Below the pieces are notes generated by a model, which saw only the letters and a list, made by a program, of their open reading frames with translations, searched no databases and was not told where the DNA came from. This document shows, piece after piece, positions 9,472 through 38,691 of a stretch of 64,000 bases of DNA. The position numbers and the translations under genes were made by a program. The stretch is from Actinomycetes bacterium (GTDB lineage: Bacteria; Actinomycetota; Actinomycetes; JBBQFP01): NCBI GenBank assembly GCA_038322045.1, contig JBBQFP010000001.1, positions 38,409 through 102,408 on the forward strand, written 5' to 3'. Position 1 is the first letter of the stretch, and each line of letters begins with the position of its first letter.

Positions 9472-10458
9472 GTGACCGTCAGCGCCGACGAGATGAGCCT
9501 CGCCGAGCTGTCCGGCACGGTGGGCCGGATCCGCGCCTGCGTCGAGGGGGTCATCGAGGGCAAGCCCGAGGTCGTCCGGATGGCGCTCACCGTCCTGCTC
9601 GCGGAGGGCCACCTCCTCGTCGAGGACGTCCCCGGCGTCGGCAAGACCATGCTCGCCAAGGCCCTGGCACGCTCCATCGACTGCACGGTGCGCCGAGTCC
9701 AGTTCACCCCGGACCTCCTGCCCAGCGACATCACCGGCGTCAGCGTGTTCAACCAGGAGCGGCACGACTTCGAGTTCAAGCCCGGCGCCGTCTTCGCCAA
9801 CGTCGTCGTCGGTGACGAGATCAACCGGGCCTCGCCCAAGACCCAGTCCGCGCTGCTCGAGTGCATGGAGGAGCGGCAGGTCACCGTCGACGGCACGACC
9901 TACGTCCTCGACATGCCCTTCATCGTGCTCGCGACCCAGAACCCCATCGAGATGGAGGGCACGTACCCGCTGCCCGAGGCCCAGCGCGACCGGTTCATGG
10001 CTCGCATGTCCATCGGCTACCCCTCCGTCGAGGCCGAGCTGGCGATGATGGACACGCACGGCTCGAGCTCGCCCCTCGAGGACGTCGAGCCGGTCGCCGA
10101 CGCCCGCGAGGTCGCCAAGCTCATCGAGACGGTACGCACGGTCCACGTCTCGGACCCGGTCCGCCGCTACGTCGTCGACCTCATCGGCGCCACCCGAACG
10201 AGCCCGGACCTCCGGCTCGGGGCCTCACCACGCGCGACCCTCCACCTGCTCCGGGCCGCACGCTCCGCCGCCGCCCTCGACGACCGTGACTTCGTCCTCC
10301 CCGACGACGTCCAGGGGCTCGCCGTCGCCGTCCTGTCCCACCGGCTCCTGCCCACGGCCGAGGCGCAGATCGCCCGTCGCACCCCGGAACGGGTTGTCGA
10401 GGAGCTCCTCGACTCGATCCCCGTGCCCGGGGGTGCCACCCGCGGCCGGCGCGACTGA
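9472..10458 (+). CDS. moxR: MoxR-family AAA+ ATPase
   Basis: 328-aa ORF with GVPGVGKT (Walker A), VVVGDEINRA (Walker B) and ATQNPIEMEGTYPLPEAQRDRF. GTG 9472 is preceded by GAGGAG. Confidence 0.93.
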   Translation: MTVSADEMSLAELSGTVGRIRACVEGVIEGKPEVVRMALTVLLAEGHLLVEDVPGVGKTMLAKALARSIDCTVRRVQFTPDLLPSDITGVSVFNQERHDFEFKPGAVFANVVVGDEINRASPKTQSALLECMEERQVTVDGTTYVLDMPFIVLATQNPIEMEGTYPLPEAQRDRFMARMSIGYPSVEAELAMMDTHGSSSPLEDVEPVADAREVAKLIETVRTVHVSDPVRRYVVDLIGATRTSPDLRLGASPRATLHLLRAARSAAALDDRDFVLPDDVQGLAVAVLSHRLLPTAEAQIARRTPERVVEELLDSIPVPGGATRGRRD

Positions 10459-14440: not shown

Positions 14441-14866
14441 CTAGCGGCCTTGCTGCTCGTCGCGACGGCGGTTCCAGCGGTCCTCGACCCGGCTCATGAA
14501 GCCCTTGCGGGAAGCACGCGACGCCGTGCGGTCAGAGGAGCGACGACCTCCTGCGGGCCGTGTCTTGCCGGCAGCGGCATCCCCGGGGACGGCAACGTGG
14601 CTCCGGCTCGTCACGGCGAACAGGGCGGCCGCCAGCATGACGACGAAGCCGAGGACGCTCACCGCGATGAGCTTCGTGGCCACCCCGAGAAGGAGCAGGA
14701 CGATGCCGAGGAGGAAGGCGACGCCGGCGAGCGCTAGGCGACGGCGGTAGCGGCGCCTGATGTCAGCCCCGCGCAACGTGGAGGCGAACTTGGGGTCCTC
14801 GGCGTAGAGGGCCTGTTCCATCTGCTCGAGCAGACGCTGCTCATGCTCAGAGAGTGGCACCGGCAC
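14441..14866 (-). CDS. DUF3040 domain membrane protein
   Basis: 141-aa ORF. N-terminus reads PLSEHEQRLLEQMEQALYAEDPKFA, followed by two TM helices and a basic tail. Confidence 0.85.
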   Translation of the reverse strand: MPVPLSEHEQRLLEQMEQALYAEDPKFASTLRGADIRRRYRRRLALAGVAFLLGIVLLLLGVATKLIAVSVLGFVVMLAAALFAVTSRSHVAVPGDAAAGKTRPAGGRRSSDRTASRASRKGFMSRVEDRWNRRRDEQQGR

Positions 14867-14988: not shown

Positions 14989-16185
14989 TCACGGGGGGCC
15001 CGCGAGGGGTCGGACCGGCACCAGGGCGGCGGGTCGCAGGGCTCGTGAGCCGAACCGGGTGACCGCCCGGTCGACCGCAAGCTCTGCTTCGCGCCACCCC
15101 TTCTCGCGGGAGCCCAGGAGCAGCTGGCGGGGTGCGGCGGCGGCGTCGACCAGGCTCTCGACACGGACCCCGACGAGCCGCAGACGAGCCCGCTGCAGCC
15201 CGAGGGCGAGGAACAGCTCACGCGCACAGGCGTAGATCTCCTGGCCGACGTCGGTGGCCTCCGAGCGGGTGCGCGACCTCGTGATCGTCGTGAAGTCGGC
15301 GAACCTCACCTTGATGGAGACGGTCCGTCCGGCCAGGCCCCGCCCGCGCATCCGTGCCGCGGTGCGCTCGCACAGGCCGAGCAGCTCACGCAGGACCACG
15401 TCAGGGTCGTCGATGTCGGTCGGGAAGGTCTCCTCGGCACCGACGCTGCGGTCGGGCTCGACCGGGACGACCGGCCGATCGTCGATCCCCCAGGCCAACG
15501 TGTGGAGATGGGCACCCGCCGCAGGGCCGAGGGCACGCTGGAGGGTGCCGCGGGGAGTCGCTGCGATGTCGGCCACGGTGCGCAGCCCGAGACGCACGAG
15601 GACCTCCTCTGTGCGTTCCCCCACCCCCCACAGCGCACCCACGGGCAACGGGTGCAGGAAGGAGATGACCTCCTCGGGAGGGACGACCAGCAGGCCGTCG
15701 GGCTTGCTCCGGGTCGAGGCAAGCTTGGCGACGAACTTCGAGGCGGCCACGCCGACCGAGGCGGTGATGCCCTGCTCGTCGGCGATCCGGTCGCGCAGCC
15801 GGTGGGCGATGGCGACCGGGCTGCCGAGGCGTCGTCGGGCACCCGTGACGTCGAGGAACGCCTCGTCGAGGGAGAGCGGCTCGACCAGCGGGGTGACGTC
15901 GCGGAAGATCTCCATCACCCCTGCGGAGACCTCGGCGTAGCGGTCGTGGTCGGGCGGCAGCACCACCGCGGGTGGGCACAGCCGTCTCGCCCGTGCCATC
16001 GGGATGCCCGCTGACACCCCGAAGCGGCGGGCCTCGTAAGTGGCCGAGAGCACCACCCCCCGGGTACCGGCACCCCCGACGATCACCGGGAGGCCGCGCA
16101 GCTCCGGTCGGGTCAGCAAGGACACCGAGGCGTAGAAGGCATCCATGTCGATGTGAAGGATCGTCGTGCGGGCGTCCTCAGCCAC
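14989..16185 (-). CDS. dinB: DNA polymerase IV (Y-family), last gene of the dnaE2 operon
   Basis: ILHIDMDAFYASV and SLDEAFLDV show an intact catalytic Asp/Asp-Glu set. The little-finger region ends in QLLLG. GTG 16185 overlaps the dnaE2 stop by 8 nt; ATG 16242 is an alternative start. Confidence 0.92.
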   Translation of the reverse strand: MAEDARTTILHIDMDAFYASVSLLTRPELRGLPVIVGGAGTRGVVLSATYEARRFGVSAGIPMARARRLCPPAVVLPPDHDRYAEVSAGVMEIFRDVTPLVEPLSLDEAFLDVTGARRRLGSPVAIAHRLRDRIADEQGITASVGVAASKFVAKLASTRSKPDGLLVVPPEEVISFLHPLPVGALWGVGERTEEVLVRLGLRTVADIAATPRGTLQRALGPAAGAHLHTLAWGIDDRPVVPVEPDRSVGAEETFPTDIDDPDVVLRELLGLCERTAARMRGRGLAGRTVSIKVRFADFTTITRSRTRSEATDVGQEIYACARELFLALGLQRARLRLVGVRVESLVDAAAAPRQLLLGSREKGWREAELAVDRAVTRFGSRALRPAALVPVRPLAGPP

Positions 16186-19100
16186 CGGAGCTCCCTGCGC
16201 TGGAGTGCCACAGCTTGCGTGGTGCCGACTTGCCGTCTTCACCGGCCGGCTTGATGTCGGCGTAGGGCGACTGACGGAACCCCGTCGGGTGGACGAGGAC
16301 CCGACGTGGGCCCATGCCCCCCGCCGTCGAGCTGCTGGGGTCGCGAGGCTCGTACCCCCCTGGCGGGGAGCCCACCGGTGGCCGCACCATGACCGGTCGG
16401 CTCGCCCTGCTCTCCGCCGCCGCGAGGACCGCCTCCTCGCTGAGCAGCTCGACCGGAGCCGTCATGAGCTCGGCCACCGCCGGCAGGCCATCGCGCTCCC
16501 AGGCCGCGTGCAGCACGGGCAGCTCCCAGCACCCGGTGGCCCGGATGGAGATCCCCCGGGGTCCCGTGCGCCGGAGGAACCCCCGGACGACGAGGAGCCA
16601 GGTGTGGAACAGTGTCGCGGCGTAGGGGCCCTGGGCATCTTCGAAGAAGGTGGCGTCGAGCGGACCGGTGGCGTCGTCGAGGGTGAGGAACACGACCCGC
16701 CGTCCGGATCGGATCGGCGGTGTCTGGGTGGCCACCTTGACCCCTGCGACGAGGACCTCGGCCTGAGAGCGCCGGGAGAGCAGGTCACGGGCCCGGGTGA
16801 CCTCGAGGGCGTCGAGGAACGGGACGTAGAAGTCGATCACATGCCTGCTGGCGTCGAGGCCGAGCACCTCGAGCTGGGCGCGCACCTGCTCGGCCGAGGT
16901 GAGCTCGGGCAGGCCGCTGACCCCGGGGGCGTCAGGGGCGTCACCGAGGTCGAGGCCGAGCTGGACCCCCGGCTCGGCCCGGACGGCTACAGGGGCCTGG
17001 GATTGACGTGCGGCCTGCTCACGGACCCCGGTCGGGCCGCCGGCTCCCCCGCCCAGGGGCTCGGCCCGGCGCCGTCGTCCGACACCCGGGCTGCGGCTGG
17101 CCCTCGTCCACCGCTCGAGGTCGGCGACCTGGAGGAGGAGGTCCCGCCTCGTGACGCTGCCGCGGCGACGGGTCTGCGTGCCCGGACCCAACCCGTAGAG
17201 GGAGTCGAAGGCGCCGGCGAGGACGAGCCGCTCGACGACCGGCCGGGAGACCGCAGCCCGGTGCCAGAAGTCGGCGAGGGACCCGTAGGGGCGACCGGCC
17301 ACCGCCCGCGCCACCTCTGCCTCGGAGATGCCCTTGACCTCCGAGAGGGCCAGCCGGATGCCATAGCCCCGGGCGTCGGGCAGGCCGGGGACGGTGGGCG
17401 CTGCCGGAAGGAAGGGCATCCCCAGCACGTCAGGGAGCTCCTCCGGCGGACCGAGCCGCTCGACCCGGTAGGAGGAGTCCGAGGCGTTGACGTCCAGACC
17501 GAGGACGCTGATCCCGAGCAGGCGTGCGTCGTCGAGGATCAGCCGCTTGGGGTACATGCCCGGGTCATGGGTGAGCACCCCGGCGAGGAACGCCGCGGGG
17601 TGATGGGCCTTGAGCCAGGCCGACTGGTAGGTGGGCAGGGCGAACGCCGCGGCATGGGCCTTGCAGAAGCCGAACGAGGCGAAGGCCCGCAGCACCTCCC
17701 AGGCCCGCTCCACCGTCGGGACGTCGTACCCCTTGGCTCTCGCGGCAGGGACGAACCACTCCCGGACCGAGGGCTGGCTCCCCGCGTCACCGATGGCCCG
17801 GCGAGCCTCGTCGGCCTCGGCCAGGGTGCACCCGGTGAGCGTGGCGATGATGTGGAGCACCTGCTCGTGGAACACGACGACGCCGTAGGTCTCGGCCAGG
17901 GCGAACTCGAGATCGGGGTGGAGGTACTCCGGCTGCGACCACCCCTGCCTGGCTCGCAGGAAAGGGGTGACCATGTCGCTCTTGACGGGCCCGGGCCGGA
18001 ACAGCGAGATGTCGATGATGAGGTCGGTGAAGGTCTCGGGGGCGAACTTGCCCACGAGCTCCCGTTGACCCGGGGACTCGATCTGGAAGCAGCCGAGCGT
18101 GTGCGTCGACTGCACGAGCGCGAACGTCGCAGGGTCGTCGAAGGGGACGGCGTCGAGGTCGACGTCCTGCCCGTCGACGCGGGCAACCTCGGCGACGGCG
18201 TGCGACATCGCCGACTGCATCCTGATGCCGAGGACGTCGAGCTTGAGCAGGCCGAGGTCCTCGACGTCGCCCTTGTCGAACTGGCTCATCGGGAAGCCCA
18301 GCCAGCTCGCCTCGACCGGGGTGCGATCGAGCAGCGTCGCGTCGGAGAGGAGCACTCCGCAGGGATGCAGGGCGACGTGGCGCGGCAGGCCGTCGAGCCG
18401 CTCGACCAAGGAGAACAGGAGGTCCAGCCGCGGGCCGGCCAACCCGCTCCGCCGCAGCTCCGGCAGCTCGTGCAGGGCGTTGCGGACGTCGCGGGCGCGG
18501 ATGTGCGGGAAGGACTTCGCGAGCGTGTCGATCTCTCCGGGCGGGAGCCCCAGCGCGGCGCCGACGTCGCGGATCGCATGACGCGCGCGGTAGGTGTCCA
18601 TCATCGACACGCAGGCGCAGCGGTCGCCGCCGAACCGCTCGAGGATGCGCTCGTAGATCTCGGTGCGCCGGTCGGACTCGACGTCGATGTCGACGTCGGG
18701 CAACGCACCGCGCAGTGGGGAGAGGAACCGCTCCATGAGCAGGCCGTGGCGCATCGGGTCGACCCCGGAGATGCCCAGCGCGTAGGTGACCAGGCTGCCG
18801 GCCCCGGACCCGCGCGCCGCCACCCGGACCCCCATGCCGCGGATGAGATCGACGACGTCGGCCACGGTGAGGAAGTACGTCGGGTAGCCCAGGTGCCGGA
18901 TGACATCGAGCTCGTCGTCGAGGCGCCGGCGGACCTCGGCCGTGAGCGTCATCGCCCGGCCGTGCAGGCCTGACTCGCACCGTGCGCGCAGCACGGCATC
19001 GGCGGCTGCCGTGCTCGGCGTCGGTGACCCGCCAGCTGCCGCTGCGAGCCCCAGGCCGCCTGCGGAGACCTCGAGCTCGGGGAAGTGGACCTCACCGATG

Positions 19101-20032
19101 CCGAGGTCGGCCTGGGGATCGAGCACGCAGGACTCGGCGAGCTCCCGGGTCGCCTCGAGCAGCGCACGCGCCCTCCCCCGCTCGCAGGCACCTGCTGCAA
19201 CCACCTCACGGGCGACCACGGCCATCTGCGCCCCCGACTTGAGGTAGCCCTCGGCAGTGGTGCGGTCGACGTGGCGCAGGTCGAGAGCGACGAGCCGGCG
19301 AGCCGCGTCGAGGACGTCGGCGACCGGGGCGTCGCCACGGGTCGCGTAGCGCACCGCGTTGGTGAGGACCGAGGACAACCCCTGCTCGTCGGCGAACCCC
19401 GCGAGCCGGGCAGCCGCGACCGACTCCCCCTGGGCGCGGTGCGAGACCACCTCGACGACGAGGTTGTGCCCCGGGACCGCGTCTCGCCACTGCCGCAGCA
19501 CCGCCGCAGCGAGGTCCGGACGTCGGACGGCGAGGGCACGCCCCACCTCCGAGGACGGTCCCAGCAGCATCACGAGGTCGCCGTCGCCGGCGTGCTCAGC
19601 CACCAGCTCGAGAGAGGAGACCGGTCGGCCCCGCTCACCCCGCAGGTGCGTGGCGCTGACCAGCCGGCACAGCGCCGCCCACCCGCTGCGGCCTCGGGCG
19701 AGGACGGTGAACCTCGGATGGCGCTGGTCGACCGTGGCGCCCCCGCGGACCGGTGCCCTGCGGGGTACGTGCGGCAGCGAGGGATCTGCACCCCCGAGCA
19801 GCCCAGAGCGCTCGAGAGCGAGATCGACGCCGAGGACCGGGCGGATGCCTGCCTGGGCGGCCGCCTTGACGAAGCGGACGGCACCGTAGACGCCGTCGCG
19901 GTCGGTCAGCCCGAGGATGTCCATCCCCACGGCCGCGGCGCTCTCGACGAGCACCCGAGGGTGTGACGCCCCGTAGCGCAAGGAGTATCCCGAGGCGACG
20001 TGGAGGTGGGCGAAAGGGTCAGGACGTGGCAC
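16178..20032 (-). CDS. dnaE2: Error-prone DNA polymerase III alpha-type subunit DnaE2
   Basis: 1284-aa ORF with an N-terminal PHP motif FAHLHVASGYSLRYGAS (DnaE2-like rather than the DnaE1 HVHTEYSMLDGA). The Pol III alpha core includes FCKAHAAAFA. A LexA box lies upstream of the operon. Confidence 0.9.
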   Translation of the reverse strand: MPRPDPFAHLHVASGYSLRYGASHPRVLVESAAAVGMDILGLTDRDGVYGAVRFVKAAAQAGIRPVLGVDLALERSGLLGGADPSLPHVPRRAPVRGGATVDQRHPRFTVLARGRSGWAALCRLVSATHLRGERGRPVSSLELVAEHAGDGDLVMLLGPSSEVGRALAVRRPDLAAAVLRQWRDAVPGHNLVVEVVSHRAQGESVAAARLAGFADEQGLSSVLTNAVRYATRGDAPVADVLDAARRLVALDLRHVDRTTAEGYLKSGAQMAVVAREVVAAGACERGRARALLEATRELAESCVLDPQADLGIGEVHFPELEVSAGGLGLAAAAGGSPTPSTAAADAVLRARCESGLHGRAMTLTAEVRRRLDDELDVIRHLGYPTYFLTVADVVDLIRGMGVRVAARGSGAGSLVTYALGISGVDPMRHGLLMERFLSPLRGALPDVDIDVESDRRTEIYERILERFGGDRCACVSMMDTYRARHAIRDVGAALGLPPGEIDTLAKSFPHIRARDVRNALHELPELRRSGLAGPRLDLLFSLVERLDGLPRHVALHPCGVLLSDATLLDRTPVEASWLGFPMSQFDKGDVEDLGLLKLDVLGIRMQSAMSHAVAEVARVDGQDVDLDAVPFDDPATFALVQSTHTLGCFQIESPGQRELVGKFAPETFTDLIIDISLFRPGPVKSDMVTPFLRARQGWSQPEYLHPDLEFALAETYGVVVFHEQVLHIIATLTGCTLAEADEARRAIGDAGSQPSVREWFVPAARAKGYDVPTVERAWEVLRAFASFGFCKAHAAAFALPTYQSAWLKAHHPAAFLAGVLTHDPGMYPKRLILDDARLLGISVLGLDVNASDSSYRVERLGPPEELPDVLGMPFLPAAPTVPGLPDARGYGIRLALSEVKGISEAEVARAVAGRPYGSLADFWHRAAVSRPVVERLVLAGAFDSLYGLGPGTQTRRRGSVTRRDLLLQVADLERWTRASRSPGVGRRRRAEPLGGGAGGPTGVREQAARQSQAPVAVRAEPGVQLGLDLGDAPDAPGVSGLPELTSAEQVRAQLEVLGLDASRHVIDFYVPFLDALEVTRARDLLSRRSQAEVLVAGVKVATQTPPIRSGRRVVFLTLDDATGPLDATFFEDAQGPYAATLFHTWLLVVRGFLRRTGPRGISIRATGCWELPVLHAAWERDGLPAVAELMTAPVELLSEEAVLAAAESRASRPVMVRPPVGSPPGGYEPRDPSSSTAGGMGPRRVLVHPTGFRQSPYADIKPAGEDGKSAPRKLWHSSAGSSGG

Positions 20033-20612
20033 TGCTCACCACACGAGGCGGGCACGGCGCGTGCGAGAGCAGCCCCAGGGTGGTCTCGACGAGGGCGAGG
20101 AAGGTCGTGGAGTCGCGCACGAGGTCGTCGGCCTCACGGCAGGTGACCGCGCGCGCGATGCCGGCCTCGGCAGCCGCACGCTTGGCAGCTCCGGCAGCGA
20201 AGAACGCCGTCCACTCGGAGAGCTCCGGTGCCACCTGCGGCACGAGCTCCCACGCGCTGCGCGGACCACGACGCCGACTCGCCGGGCGGCCCCGGACCGC
20301 GAGCACCGCAGCTGCGCTGCGCAGGGCAGCCAGGTGCGCCGCTGCGTACCGCTCGGTGGGGACGGATGCAGCCATCGCCTCGCCGAGCCCGGCGCGGGCG
20401 AGGTCGAGCAGGCTCAGAGCAGCATCGACGCCGGCCCCCCCGCGCTGGGGAAGCGGCCGCTGCGCGGCGGCTCGTCCGGACCGGTGCGCGAGAGGTGCCG
20501 GCCGGACGCCGGTGCGCTCGGGGCTGCGCACGGCAGCAGGGCTGTGCACGGCAGCAGGGCTGCCCACGGCAGCGGTGGCGGTGGCGGTGACGGTGACGGT
20601 GGCGGCTGCCAT
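20019..20612 (-). CDS. HEPN-like protein (resembles the family annotated SAV_6107 HEPN)
   Basis: ATG 20612 lies 2 nt after the upstream TAG. The 197-aa product contains ERYAAAHLAALR, an Rx4H motif at 20334-20351. Its end overlaps the dnaE2 start by 14 nt. The family name is from memory, not from a search. Confidence 0.7.
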   Translation of the reverse strand: MAAATVTVTATATAAVGSPAAVHSPAAVRSPERTGVRPAPLAHRSGRAAAQRPLPQRGGAGVDAALSLLDLARAGLGEAMAASVPTERYAAAHLAALRSAAAVLAVRGRPASRRRGPRSAWELVPQVAPELSEWTAFFAAGAAKRAAAEAGIARAVTCREADDLVRDSTTFLALVETTLGLLSHAPCPPRVVSSATS

Positions 20613-20614
20613 GA

Positions 20615-20992
20615 CTAGTCCAGCGCCTGGGCGAGGGTCCAGGACCCGGCCCGGCGGTCCAGGCTCAGGTCGAACACCCCGGTGCCCAGCACCCGACCGG
20701 CGCTGGCCTCGACGCGCCACAGCTCGCGCTCCTCGGCCAGCGCTGCCGAACCCCGTCCGTCGACGTCGAGGGCTCCAGGTGCTCCCGAGGCCGGTGAGGT
20801 TGCGCCTGGTTGATCGTCGATCCCCGACGTGCTCGCCGCAGCAGAACGCCACCAGGCGCCCGTCTCGACCCAGTGGGCGAGCACCTCACGGACGACGTAG
20901 AGGCGGCCATGCCACAGGAACTGCGCGGGCACCGGCGAGACCTCGTCAGCAGCAGGCTTGACGTGGACCGGGTCGTCGTAACGTCGTGCCAT
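20615..20992 (-). CDS. Small conserved protein, first gene of the SOS operon (resembles DUF6504)
   Basis: ATG 20992 is preceded by GGGAGG-N5. The 125-aa product reads MARRYDDPVHVKP...FLWHGRLYVVREVLAHWVE...ELWRVEA...GVFDLSLD. The longer 212-aa ORF version is Arg/Ser-rich junk. Confidence 0.65.
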   Translation of the reverse strand: MARRYDDPVHVKPAADEVSPVPAQFLWHGRLYVVREVLAHWVETGAWWRSAAASTSGIDDQPGATSPASGAPGALDVDGRGSAALAEERELWRVEASAGRVLGTGVFDLSLDRRAGSWTLAQALD

Positions 20993-21160
20993 CGGTGCCT
21001 CCCAGGCTTCAGCAGCGGACGTCGCGCTCGTGGCACGAGCACGCAAGCCGGGGGAAGGCGGCTGATGAGAAGGCGCTGCCCGCAGGGTCGAGGGGGCTTC
21101 CCCACCTCCCCGGCCCTGCCGGCTGCACCGTGCCCGAGCAGATACCCGAGATTCGTCATC

Positions 21161-21176
21161 TCGAACATCTGTTCGA
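21161..21176. promoter_or_regulatory. LexA (SOS) box, actinobacterial Cheo-type
   Basis: TCGAACATCTGTTCGA is a perfect palindrome matching TCGAAC-N4-GTTCGA. It lies 169 nt upstream of the 20992 start and 126 nt upstream of the divergent 21302 start. Confidence 0.85.
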
Positions 21177-21301
21177 ACACGTCCGACAGTACACCGGGCC
21201 ACGCAGCGGTCGTCAACGCCCGAAGAGGGCCGACGGGCCGACGCACCACCCAAGTCGTCCGGCTGGCGAGGGGAAGCGGTGTGCTGGCACCCTGCTCCCC
21301 C

Positions 21302-35030: not shown

Positions 35031-35687
35031 ATGCGTCTGCTCAACCACGTGCGCACCAACGCGCGAGCGCACCGCCACGCCCCGACGCAGGACGCCTGCG
35101 ACTCCACCGCCCGGCCCTGCACACGCCGCCGCGGCCCCTCGTTGCGCCACGCCCTCGTCTCCACCGGCGTCGCCACCATCGCCGTCCTCGCTGCCGCACC
35201 CGCGTTCGCCGAAGGCGAGGTGGCCGTCGGGACGGTTCCTGCAGGCGTCTCTGCGGCGGCGGCGACTGCGGCCCCCGTGGCCCCCGTGGCCCCCCTGGCC
35301 ATCGACCAGGCGCCGGCGGCCCCGGCCGTGGCGTCACCGGCTGCCGCTGCCGCACCGGTCGCACCGGTCGCCCTGGCGGCGCGGCCCCGAGCGGTCGCGG
35401 TCTCGCGGGCGGCGGTCCGGCCGCGCGTAGTCATCCCGGCGCGGGTCCTGCGGCTCAACTGGACCGCGCTGGCGCGCTGTGAGTCCGGCAACCGGCCCAC
35501 CGCCGTCAACCGCCGAGGGCGGTACTACGGGCTCTTCCAGTTCAACGTCCGCACGTGGCGGGCTGTCGGCGGCGCGGGCTACCCGCACCGGGCGCCGCGG
35601 GCGGAGCAGACGCTGCGCGCCCAGAAGCTCTTCCTCAGCCGCGGCTCACGGCCGTGGCCGGTCTGCGGCAGGAGGCTCTACCGCTGA
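35031..35687 (+). CDS. Secreted Rpf-like transglycosylase domain protein (resuscitation-promoting factor family)
   Basis: ATG 35031 is preceded by GGAGAGG. It has a signal peptide (LVSTGVATIAVLAAAPAFAEG), an Ala/Pro linker and a C-terminal WTALARCESGN...YYGLFQFNVRTW...PWPVCG (Rpf fold with catalytic Glu). Confidence 0.85.
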   Translation: MRLLNHVRTNARAHRHAPTQDACDSTARPCTRRRGPSLRHALVSTGVATIAVLAAAPAFAEGEVAVGTVPAGVSAAAATAAPVAPVAPLAIDQAPAAPAVASPAAAAAPVAPVALAARPRAVAVSRAAVRPRVVIPARVLRLNWTALARCESGNRPTAVNRRGRYYGLFQFNVRTWRAVGGAGYPHRAPRAEQTLRAQKLFLSRGSRPWPVCGRRLYR

Positions 35688-37141
35688 CGAGCGGTCCCCC
35701 AGCAGACCCCCAGGGCGCCGGCGCGACCGGCGCTGCGGCACCCGGCTGCGTCCTGCACCTCGACCTCGACGCCTTCTACGCCGCGGTCGAGCAGCGCGAC
35801 AAGCCCTCGCTGCGCGGCAGGTCCGTCGTCGTCGGCGGGGTGGGCGGCCGCGGGGTCGTGGCGACGGCGAGCTATGAGGCTCGGGCCTTCGGCGTCCACT
35901 CGGCGATGCCGACCGCCCAGGCCCGCCGTCGATGCCCGCACGCGGCGTTCCTCACGCCCCGCTTCGCGGCCTATCGCGAGGCGAGCGAGCGGGTCATGGA
36001 GCTCCTCCGCGAGCTCTCACCACTCGTCGAACCGCTCTCGCTCGACGAGGCCTTCGTCGACCTCGTCGCCGGCGGACTGGACCCCGGAGACCTCGGCCGG
36101 CTCCACGACACCGCCCAGGTGCTGCGGGGCGCCGTCAAGGACTCCACCGGGCTCACCGCTTCGGTGGGCATCGCCCGCACGAAGCACGTCGCGAAGATCG
36201 CGAGCGACCTGTGCAAGCCCGACGGACTGCTCGTCATCGGGGTCGACGAGGAGTCCGCGTTCCTCGACCCGCTGCCGGTCGAGCGGCTCTGGGGCGTCGG
36301 GGCGGTCACCGCGCAGCGCCTGCGCCGGGCAGGCATCACGACCATCGGGGAGCTCGGCGAGCTCGCCGAGGACGACGCCGTCGGGCTGCTGGGCGAGGCC
36401 CATGGTCGCGGGCTGCACCGGCTGGCTCACGGGGTCGATGACCGCCGGGTGGTCGCCGAGCGAGAGACGAAGTCGGTGAGCGCCGAGGACACCTTCGAGC
36501 GCGACCTCACGAGCCCCGCGGCGATGCACGCCGTCCTCGACGTCCTCAGCGCCCGCGTGGGCGAGAGGCTGCGCGGCTCCCGCAGCGCCGGCCGCACGGT
36601 GACGGTGAAGGTGCGCGGCCCCGACTTCACGACGACGTCGCGCTCGCGGACCGTGGACGGCGCCACCGACGAGACGCGGCTCATCGCCCGGACGGCACGC
36701 GAGCTGCTCGCCGAGCTTGCGCCGCCCGACGGGGTCCGGCTGTTGGGCGTCGGGGTCTCGGGGCTCACCGAGTGGGCCCAGGACCAGCTCGGCTTCGAGA
36801 CCGGACGGACGCCGGATGCCCTCGAGAGCGCTCAGGAACCCTCCGCCGCCGCTGCACCGGGGGAACCCCCCGCCGCCGCACGGGGTGCCCCAGCCGACGA
36901 GGTCGCTCCGGCGCCGGTGGAGCAACCGCCGCGCAGCAGCGGCTCGTGGCTGCCCGGGCAGGACGTCGTCCACGACGAGCACGGCCGAGGCTGGGTGTGG
37001 GGTGCAGGGCTCGGCCGGGTGACCGTGCGCTTCGAGACCGCTGACACCGGCCGAGGCCCGGTGCGCACCCTCGCGGCCGACGACCTTGCCCTGCACCCGG
37101 CTGCGCCACGGCCTCCGTCGTCCCCTCGGTCGTTCGGCTGA
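35654..37141 (+). CDS. dinB: DNA polymerase IV (Y-family) with C-terminal extension
   Basis: LHLDLDAFYAAVEQRD and SLDEAFVDL show an intact catalytic set. The start is uncertain: GTG 35654, or CTG 35684 (GGAGG-N8, CTGA overlap with the rpf stop). The last 65 aa form an extra small domain (see findings). Confidence 0.9.
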   Translation: MAGLRQEALPLTSGPPADPQGAGATGAAAPGCVLHLDLDAFYAAVEQRDKPSLRGRSVVVGGVGGRGVVATASYEARAFGVHSAMPTAQARRRCPHAAFLTPRFAAYREASERVMELLRELSPLVEPLSLDEAFVDLVAGGLDPGDLGRLHDTAQVLRGAVKDSTGLTASVGIARTKHVAKIASDLCKPDGLLVIGVDEESAFLDPLPVERLWGVGAVTAQRLRRAGITTIGELGELAEDDAVGLLGEAHGRGLHRLAHGVDDRRVVAERETKSVSAEDTFERDLTSPAAMHAVLDVLSARVGERLRGSRSAGRTVTVKVRGPDFTTTSRSRTVDGATDETRLIARTARELLAELAPPDGVRLLGVGVSGLTEWAQDQLGFETGRTPDALESAQEPSAAAAPGEPPAAARGAPADEVAPAPVEQPPRSSGSWLPGQDVVHDEHGRGWVWGAGLGRVTVRFETADTGRGPVRTLAADDLALHPAAPRPPSSPRSFG

Positions 37142-37501: not shown

Positions 37502-38691
37502 GCCGCCGCGAGCCAGGTGCCGACCTCGTCGACCCACGCGTCGGCCCCGCCGCGCGCGTAGACCCCGAACATCCCCGCGTGCTGGGCCGCCGTCATGTTC
37601 GCCGCCTGGTCGTCGGCGACGAGGACCTCGTCGGCGCGTCCACCCCACTCGGCGAGCACGGCCTCGAACATGGCGGGCTCGGGCTTGGCAACACCGAGCT
37701 CGTCGGAGACGAAGACCCGGCTCACGTGCTCGGCGATCCCGTACTGCTTGAGGGCTCCCTCCAACCACGCACGGCGGTGGTTGCTGAGGATCCACACCTC
37801 TCCGAGCCGGGACCACTCTGCGAGGTGGTCGACGCCGTGGAAGGGGCGCAGGTGGTCCTCGATGATGGCGGTGAGCCGCTCCTCGGCCCCCTCGACGGGG
37901 AGCCCGGCCAGCGCGGCGAAGTGCCGGCCGACCTCGGGTCCCAGGCGACCAGTCCAGAGGTCGTCGCGGATGGTTCGGTGGAAGTCGTTGACGAGGTCGG
38001 CCCGCGGGCGCCCGGAGACGCGCGCGAGGTGGGAGAACAGGGCGGGCATCGGGTCGGTGAGCAGGACGCCGCCCGCGTCGAGGACGAGCAGTCTCGGCCG
38101 CAGCGAGCCGTCGGCGTTGCGGCGCGCCAGCGCCTCGCCGGCGGCGATCTGCCCGGCGGCCGAGCGGAACGACACCGCAGCGGGGGCCATCGGTCCGCGT
38201 CGCACGACGATGTCGGCCAGGCGCTGACGGGGCGTCATGAGGTAGCCGGCACCGGCCGTCGTCGCGTTGACCCAGCTGAGCAGCGCGAGCAGCTCGGGGT
38301 CCGGCGTCGGCAGGGAGTCCATGACCTCGACGGCGAGCTGCTCCTGGCCGAGCAGCTCGGCCTCGGTGAAGGCGCCGGTGTGCGCGGCCACGAGCGCGGC
38401 GACGTCCGGCAGCCCGGAGTCCGCGAGCAGCTCGGCGCCGCTGGCCGCATGGTGCCGCCGGGCGTCGGGCCCGATGACCCGCCCGACGTCGTGGAGCAGG
38501 GCGGCGAGGACGAACGTCTCCGCGCGCCGGGGCTCGAGCCCTCTGGTGACGGCGATCGCCTCGGCACGCTCGGCCGCGACCTCGGCGTGCCGCAGTCGGG
38601 TCCACTGCCCGCAGGAGGGATAGCTGAAGGCCAGTGAGGCCTTCCACGCGGCGATGTCCGTGGGATCCGAGGGCACATCGAGACGCGGCAT
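37498..38691 (-). CDS. HD-domain / HAD-family hydrolase fusion protein
   Basis: Called from ATG 38691. The N-terminal HD domain has AALLHDVGR...HH. The C-terminal HAD domain has LVLDAGGVL (DxG-type motif I variant) and LVADDQAANMTAA (motif IV). Confidence 0.8.
   Translation of the reverse strand: MPRLDVPSDPTDIAAWKASLAFSYPSCGQWTRLRHAEVAAERAEAIAVTRGLEPRRAETFVLAALLHDVGRVIGPDARRHHAASGAELLADSGLPDVAALVAAHTGAFTEAELLGQEQLAVEVMDSLPTPDPELLALLSWVNATTAGAGYLMTPRQRLADIVVRRGPMAPAAVSFRSAAGQIAAGEALARRNADGSLRPRLLVLDAGGVLLTDPMPALFSHLARVSGRPRADLVNDFHRTIRDDLWTGRLGPEVGRHFAALAGLPVEGAEERLTAIIEDHLRPFHGVDHLAEWSRLGEVWILSNHRRAWLEGALKQYGIAEHVSRVFVSDELGVAKPEPAMFEAVLAEWGGRADEVLVADDQAANMTAAQHAGMFGVYARGGADAWVDEVGTWLAAA

Follow-up and report, generated by a model that had tools for sequence, protein, structure and literature searches.

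The window analyzed here, a 64,000-nucleotide (nt) stretch of contig JBBQFP010000001.1 from an Actinomycetes bacterium (contig positions 38,409 to 102,408), carries at positions 14989-21176 a perfect LexA (SOS) box followed by four tightly packed minus-strand genes. In order of transcription, they encode a DUF6504 protein corresponding to the C-terminal domain of ImuB (ImuB-C), a HEPN_SAV_6107 protein, a C-family DNA polymerase of the DnaE2B type, and a Y-family polymerase (PolY) with intact catalytic motifs. This operon is probably a LexA-repressed translesion or mutagenic module with a split ImuB, of the DnaE2B-PolY-ImuB-C-RecA type predicted by Timinskas and Venclovas (Nucleic Acids Research, hereafter NAR, 2019; PMC6511836) and in a later survey (NAR 2026; PMC12926913). 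An earlier reading made from the sequence only had suggested an alternative set of DnaE2 accessory proteins. The set is indeed noncanonical and contains a DnaE2-type polymerase, but it had already been described computationally in these two papers. What appears to be undescribed is the HEPN member, a methyltransferase interleaved in most relatives, a composite promoter, and a leader hairpin. HEPN is not mentioned in the NAR 2026 main text or in the text supplements of PMC6511836 and PMC12926913; in the literature searched, DUF6504 was not found by name, and SAV_6107 was found in a single paper.

Genes and polymerases of the operon

The LexA box occupies positions 21161-21176, where the plus-strand sequence TCGAACATCTGTTCGA reads TCGAACAGATGTTCGA on the minus, coding strand. 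It is the sole match to TCGAAC-N4-GTTCGA in the window when one mismatch is permitted (about 0.09 expected by chance), and none of 100 shuffles produced an exact box. Related loci were collected by a genome scan with a HEPN alignment, a metagenome scan with a DUF6504 alignment, and nine context look-ups. The genome-collection scan returned mostly Streptomyces, and the spread outside this genus is represented by five genome loci and by metagenome contigs. In each of the 81 related loci that extended 200 nt or more upstream, an orthologous box was kept with no more than one mismatch, in agreement with the proposal of an SOS-box-controlled operon.

The ImuB-C gene (20615-20992; 125 amino acids [aa]) starts with an ATG preceded by a GGGAGG Shine-Dalgarno sequence. 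It is followed, all on the minus strand, by the HEPN_SAV_6107 gene (20019-20612; 197 aa), the DnaE2B-type polymerase gene (16178-20032; 1,284 aa), and the Y-family gene of the Pol IV/DinB, PolY-core type (14989-16185; 398 aa). The likely start of the last gene is a GTG at 16185, and its longest open reading frame starts at 16242. Between successive genes there is first a 2-nt gap, then an overlap of 14 nt, and last one of 8 nt, just as read from the letters, and a simple scan for promoters and terminators found nothing within the operon.

Profile searches recovered both families that had been expected for the small proteins: the first product matched PF20114 (DUF6504) with an E value of 3e-21, and the second matched PF18726 (HEPN_SAV_6107) with an E value of 1e-37. 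The first protein is 36% identical (E value of 2e-15) to the ImuB-C protein of Tessaracoccus lapidicaptus (VEP41449), which itself matches PF20114 at 1e-13. The C-terminal 73 residues of a Rhizobium ImuB encoded in an imuA-imuB-dnaE2 cassette also match PF20114 (E value of 4e-5, with a score that equals the gathering cut-off). The AlphaFold model of the window protein is all-beta with a disordered insert and had no PDB neighbor in a Foldseek search, which fits the novel beta-barrel fold described for ImuB-C (NAR 2026; PMC12926913). NCBIfam holds no model for either small protein, and PDB sequence searches with both returned nothing meaningful. Judged by these comparisons, DUF6504 is the ImuB-C domain in the form of a separate protein, which makes ImuB split and not absent. 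The claim that the operon does without ImuA and ImuB thus stands in part: neither an imuA, imuA' nor imuB gene occurs in the operon or elsewhere in the 64-kilobase (kb) window, but a piece of ImuB is present under another name.

The large polymerase has the full Pol III alpha domain set in Pfam (PHP, DNA_pol3_alpha, finger, HHH_6, and OB), and the catalytic motifs PDVDID and KLD can be seen in its sequence. It scored 647 against the NCBIfam DnaE1 model (cut-off, 1002) and 645 against the canonical error-prone model (cut-off, 939). T. lapidicaptus DnaE2B (N-terminal 400 aa) shares 52% identity with it and S. alboniger DnaE2B shares 45%, compared with about 31% over 62% of the length for proteobacterial DnaE2A sequences. 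By identity and NCBIfam scores, as opposed to a tree, the window polymerase groups with DnaE2B and not with the DnaE2A group associated with ImuA and ImuB. DnaE2B-like polymerases about 44% identical to that of the window are also encoded on many linear or large Streptomyces plasmids (e.g., NZ_CP108868.1:97961-101398), where the gene often adjoins one annotated as a helix-hairpin-helix domain protein.

The Y-family product matched IMS and IMS_C in Pfam and scored 392 against the NCBIfam DNA polymerase IV model NF003015 (cut-off, 367). Along its full length, it shares 57.6% identity with T. lapidicaptus PolY (VEP41451), and with the other module genes it is orthologous to that exemplar. As the sequence-only reading had noted, DMDAF and SLDEAF are both present; the DMD and LDE residues are invariant in 22 orthologues, which points to a catalytically intact enzyme. 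The C terminus carries RQLLLG (RQLxLG) and then a conserved tail, GWRxAExAxDRAxxRFGxxAVRPA. In the window, this tail reads GWREAELAVDRAVTRFGSRALRPAAL; it aligns with GWTDAERAIDKAVLRFGPRAVQRARL of the exemplar and is conserved in orthologues. Its likeness to the N terminus of RecA (RecA-NT) was judged by eye. Because PolY carries this RecA-NT-like tail, RecA is the predicted substitute for ImuA, a role proposed for it on the basis of the same motif in both NAR papers (PMC6511836 and PMC12926913).

Other features of the window adjoin or resemble the operon. A DUF3040 membrane protein gene (14441-14866, minus strand; PF11239, E value of 2e-29) is the 3' neighbor of the PolY gene. It comes after the PolY gene in each of the 23 complete loci and after the HEPN-methyltransferase pair in Streptomyces; it is a conserved neighbor on the same strand, and its membership in the operon is uncertain. 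The wider synteny comprises a YbaK-type editing gene upstream and DUF3040, transglutaminase, DUF58, MoxR, and the dcw cluster downstream. Apart from the operon PolY, the only Y-family gene in the window is at 35555-37141 on the plus strand. Its product has intact LDLDAF and SLDEAF motifs and a long C-terminal extension and resembles DinB1/DinX, and a scan of the window found no LexA box near it.

Promoter and leader

Alignment of the upstream regions places a -10-like hexamer, TACTGT, at 21186-21191, 9 nt upstream of the LexA box, and a candidate -35 hexamer, TTGACG, at 21211-21216, with a 19-nt spacer between them; like all the elements described here, both are on the minus strand. At 21200-21207 lies GCTGCGTG, a degenerate PafBC/RecA-NDp-like element that matches at 4 of 8 positions in the aligned place. 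No strict RecA-NDp match was found in the window.

The relatives have a more elaborate promoter. In 59 of the 81 loci, the pattern TGTCRGTG-N8-TAnnnT begins about 30 nt upstream of the LexA box (at most one core mismatch; strict in 27 of 81), with TAnnnT ending 7 to 9 nt before the box. Examples are L003:9458-9479, L019:9340-9361, and L029:9448-9469. We take this pattern to be the RecA-NDp/PafBC promoter consensus, which reportedly goes back to Gamulin et al. 2004. The literature on PafBC and RecA-NDp confirms the concept, its distribution among Actinobacteria, and that some genes are under dual regulation, with the consensus sequence itself not quoted.

A similar element precedes the HEPN gene where it stands alone in Streptomyces: TGTCAGTG-N8-nAnnnT was found upstream in 70 of the 75 loci, with the -10 element relaxed. 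Thus, the HEPN family looks damage-regulated in both contexts, through a LexA box in the operon loci and a RecA-NDp-like promoter in front of the solo gene. Two further RecA-NDp-like sites occur in many Streptomyces loci, at upstream distances of about 4 to 5 kb and about 9 kb.

Between the LexA box and imuB-C, the transcripts of most relatives are predicted to form a hairpin of about 20 pairs with an invariant loop, A(C)CUCGACCC(C); examples are L003:9505-9570, L019:9420-9490, and L086:7915-7975. MAFFT followed by RNAalifold misregistered the arms and recovered only 5 pairs, and a pair count anchored on the loop was used instead. In 59 unique sequences, the closing pair is G-C in 58, and pairs 2 to 6 are 92 to 100% canonical with four to six pair types each. 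The leaders thus show clear covariation for the predicted hairpin. The 168-nt 5' leader of the window (20993-21160) had a fold z-score of -2.1. It retains the 8-nt loop motif of the relatives, CTCGACCC, at 21085-21092 and lacks the canonical stem, and no credible Rfam match was found in it.

The leaders vary among groups. In a Nocardioides-like subgroup, a downstream GGGGTCGAG is complementary to the hairpin loop, and the two may form a pseudoknot; in Nocardioides-type leaders, the loop is predicted to pair with downstream GGGGUCGAG. The hairpin element was not found in the Streptomyces HEPN leaders or in Nonomuraea. The solo HEPN gene of Streptomyces has a short leader in which a different hairpin, GACGACAGGAGGTTCGTCATG, encloses the Shine-Dalgarno sequence.

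The HEPN_SAV_6107 protein

The HEPN protein consists of a disordered N terminus (residues 1 to 57) and a helical bundle (residues 58 to 178). Its AlphaFold model is all-helical, with a predicted local distance difference test score above 90 across the domain, and is not RecA-like. The top Foldseek matches were HEPN structures, AF0298 (2hsb) first, then ST0689 (1wol) and sacsin (3o10), with weak E values of 0.05 to 0.3 and template modeling scores, normalized to target length, of 0.60 to 0.67. In the model, the protein thus has the four-helix HEPN fold.

The Rx4H motif that the sequence-only reading had singled out as HEPN-type exists as R88-YAAA-H93 and is strongly conserved. It is invariant in 120 of 120 operon-type sequences; among the 75 from Streptomyces, H93 never varies and R88 is kept in 73. 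However, it does not occupy the canonical catalytic position. According to Anantharaman et al. (2013; PMC3710099), the canonical Rx4-6H sits where helix 3 ends, and its arginine is followed by a polar residue; the SAV_6107 family is described there as lacking it, with no genomic context listed. The RYAAAH of the window protein lies at the N terminus of helix 2 in the model, and a tyrosine follows the arginine. The canonical site at the end of helix 3 reads K144-R145-AAAE-AG151 (KRAAAEAG), in which the arginine is kept and the histidine is absent. Alternative histidine sites have been proposed for AF0298 (2hsb) and AbiV (PMC3710099), and by analogy the invariant E-R-x4-H on helix 2 may be such a site. 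Across 195 family members (the 120 operon-type and 75 Streptomyces sequences), about 25 residues are invariant; the invariant or near-invariant positions include E87, R88, H93, R107, W121, PEL, EW, K/R144-R145, E149, R159, DDL (D162 and D163), and R166.

In the disordered N-terminal tail of the window protein, short direct DNA repeats at 20500-20612 (minus strand) encode TVTVTATATA and AVHSPAAVRSP, and the closest relative, P0001, which is 98% identical, lacks 18 residues of these repeats. The tail therefore varies by insertions and deletions, and the true start codon is uncertain.

The association of the HEPN gene with the operon is real and extensive. HEPN is the next gene after imuB-C in 67 of 68 loci with enough sequence, dnaE2 is the next after HEPN in 48 of 50, and 20 of the 23 complete loci have the order imuB-C, HEPN, dnaE2, S-adenosylmethionine (SAM) methyltransferase, PolY, DUF3040. 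The additional gene encodes a CmoM/SmtA-like class I SAM methyltransferase (e.g., L083:12960-13721 and L009:10646-11416); it is gone from the window, throughout its 64 kb, and from locus L151. This pattern bears on a proposal in line with the sequence-only reading, namely that HEPN belongs to the DnaE2B mutasome as an integral subunit, accessory or regulatory, which would fill an ImuA'-like role or gate polymerase access by binding DnaE2B, PolY, RecA, or the clamp. The gene sits between imuB-C and dnaE2 with junctions that suggest translational coupling, and all inspected family members outside Streptomyces lie within the operon. In two loci without dnaE2 (L040:9600-12350 and L168:7647-10421), HEPN stays with imuB-C, the methyltransferase, and PolY, and the perfect LexA box and leader hairpin are kept.

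Nevertheless, we consider a subunit role somewhat doubtful. In T. lapidicaptus, the module genes have consecutive accession numbers that leave no space for a HEPN gene, and their products were modeled by the NAR 2026 authors as a "good tetramer" complete without it (PMC12926913). In Nonomuraea gerenzanensis (NZ_LT559118.1), imuB-C adjoins dnaE2 and has a GAGAACATATGTTCGA box at -81, with neither HEPN nor PolY nearby; this accession, listed in PLSDB as an 11.85-Mb "plasmid," is a whole chromosome. Conversely, HEPN occupies the same chromosomal site in 75 of 75 Streptomyces species (loci L001-L080, about 9760-10450) with the same invariant residues, and no imuB-C (DUF6504), dnaE2, or dinB gene was found within 10 kb on either side. 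The dnaE2-dinB2 pair of Streptomyces is at a different locus. No second domain was found in the 10 longest of the best 150 of 1,191 HEPN representative clusters, which had only long N-terminal tails. Since Streptomyces keeps HEPN without the polymerases and the T. lapidicaptus and Nonomuraea modules do without HEPN, these distributions argue against a role as an obligate DnaE2 accessory or subunit.

In a different explanation, HEPN, in most lineages with the CmoM-like methyltransferase, would form an older, independent, damage-inducible module beside DUF3040 that acts on RNA, for instance tRNA or mRNA, and the polymerase genes would only be interleaved with it and share its promoter. Streptomyces keeps HEPN, the methyltransferase, and DUF3040 at the syntenic site; the methyltransferase directly follows the solo HEPN gene in at least 68 of the 75 loci and is 60 to 65% identical to the operon copies. 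Its best NCBIfam match is the tRNA methyltransferase CmoM (full length, E value of 3e-30, under the cut-off). The RecA-NDp-like promoter of the solo gene points the same way, the HEPN superfamily consists mostly of RNases and RNA binders (PMC3710099), and the invariant polar residues of the family resemble an active or binding site. However, the family lacks the canonical Rx4-6H and has no known RNA target, and the window has no methyltransferase and yet has HEPN tightly coupled to dnaE2. The interleaved order is also hard to derive by insertion or loss. On balance, we regard this explanation as a serious candidate that falls short of being the probable one.

Many HEPN families are toxins or defense effectors (PMC3710099), and the gene might have landed in the operon by chance as an antiphage or toxin element. 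This idea was dropped as highly improbable: PADLOC gave no match, there is no MNT or antitoxin partner, and the syntenic position is fixed, with vertical-looking conservation across orders. A tblastn search of plasmids with HEPN also gave no match, with the limit that the low-complexity filter may hide an Ala-rich protein.

We regard the HEPN protein as a conserved, damage-regulated passenger that one large actinomycete clade carries in this operon. Its most likely role is to bind or process a nucleic acid or to regulate the response, as opposed to serving as a structural core subunit. More specifically, HEPN_SAV_6107 could be a damage-induced regulator of actinobacterial error-prone synthesis that acts on an RNA by means of a relocated HEPN active or binding site (E87/R88/H93 on helix 2 plus R145/E149), its candidate target being the leader hairpin with its ACCUCGACCC loop or a tRNA also acted on by the CmoM-like methyltransferase. 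We put this forward as a speculation more likely to be wrong than right by a wide measure; if true, HEPN would tie control at the RNA level to the use of the DnaE2B mutasome.

The proposed module and known systems

The split-ImuB module would operate as follows. DNA damage would lead to RecA filaments and self-cleavage of LexA, and the box, which lies 9 nt downstream of the -10 hexamer, would become free. Most relatives have, at the same promoter, an activator element of the PafBC type that would act as well. The four tightly coupled genes would then be produced together. The standalone ImuB-C beta-barrel is expected to dock on the PHP domain of DnaE2B, as ImuB-C does in published models, and the intact PolY would supply the clamp-binding-like RQLxLG and the RecA-NT-like tail that recruits RecA in place of ImuA. 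Jointly, ImuB-C, DnaE2B, PolY, and RecA would bypass lesions and extend from them.

Several points weigh against this proposal. The module type is known from computational prediction alone, and the absence of imuA, imuA', and imuB was established for the window. The identity of DUF6504 and ImuB-C draws on one proteobacterial ImuB at the Pfam threshold and on the published ImuB-C assignment; an hhalign alignment of DUF6504 with one actinobacterial ImuB2 C terminus was nonsignificant, and Pfam gave no match to that fragment. The window has neither the PafBC-like element nor the canonical leader hairpin seen in its relatives and so may be regulated differently. The invariant HEPN residues should lie at one end of the bundle, a placement derived from the up-down helix topology and not from coordinates.

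The remaining objection comes from Streptomyces, in which deletion of dnaE2 changed neither UV (ultraviolet) killing nor UV mutagenesis, and end patching of linear replicons depends on dinB1 and dinB2 (PMC3273824). By extension, the polymerase pair could be mainly nonmutagenic and serve to fill gaps, patch telomeres or ends, or tolerate specific adducts. This is unlikely, however, given that the window PolY is catalytically intact, unlike Streptomyces DinB2, that LexA control is strictly conserved, and that ImuB-C is present, as in mutasomes.

In mycobacteria, drug resistance is driven by DnaE2-dependent mutagenesis, whose accessory factors are under study as targets. Many actinomycetes appear to use a different module, composed of DnaE2B, a split ImuB, and an active Pol IV. 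One large clade of these modules carries a HEPN-fold protein and seems to be wired to the two known damage-response circuits of actinobacteria, LexA and a PafBC-like element, usually with a structured leader, and these elements are candidates for the regulation of error-prone polymerase access. The orphan SAV_6107 HEPN family thereby gains its first functional context, which would be the DNA damage response.

The NAR 2026 survey (PMC12926913) reports DnaE2B from genomes that have neither imuA nor imuB and associates it with ImuB-C and with PolYs that bear a RecA-NT motif. The window operon shares with that DnaE2B-PolY-ImuB-C-RecA module a standalone ImuB-C, a DnaE2B-group polymerase, an active PolY-core with a RecA-NT-like tail, the same relative gene order, and a restriction to actinobacteria. 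It differs in having the HEPN_SAV_6107 gene between imuB-C and dnaE2 and in its fixed site beside DUF3040 near the dcw cluster. Further differences are confined to relatives of the window, most of which have the CmoM-like methyltransferase gene in the dnaE2-PolY interval, and which have the composite PafBC-like plus LexA promoter and the leader hairpin.

The canonical ImuA(ImuA')-ImuB-DnaE2 mutasome of Mycobacterium tuberculosis, Caulobacter, and Pseudomonas likewise is under SOS/LexA control. In it, too, an additional Pol III alpha-type polymerase works together with a Y-family protein and an ImuB-C domain, and the two systems share the predicted logic of an adaptor joined to an error-prone extender. 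In the window, however, the Y-family partner keeps its catalytic acids, ImuB-C is encoded separately, there is no gene for ImuA or ImuA', and the polymerase falls under the NCBIfam cut-off for error-prone DnaE2.

The Streptomyces dnaE2-dinB2 pair (iPolY-DnaE2B-RecA; PMC3273824) resembles the operon in its SOS box and in the overlap of the DnaE2B stop codon with the start of a dinB-type gene, and it is induced about 6-fold by UV and methyl methanesulfonate (Tsai et al. 2012; PMC3273824). In contrast to the window PolY, Streptomyces DinB2 has lost its catalytic acids (HLH for DMD), and no ImuB-C has been reported for that pair. Finally, the HEPN protein agrees with the SAV_6107 family (PMC3710099; PF18726) in its strong Pfam match, helical bundle, and restriction to actinobacteria. 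It departs from the family as listed in PMC3710099 in having a conserved context, which is either the mutasome operon or, in Streptomyces, a damage-type promoter.

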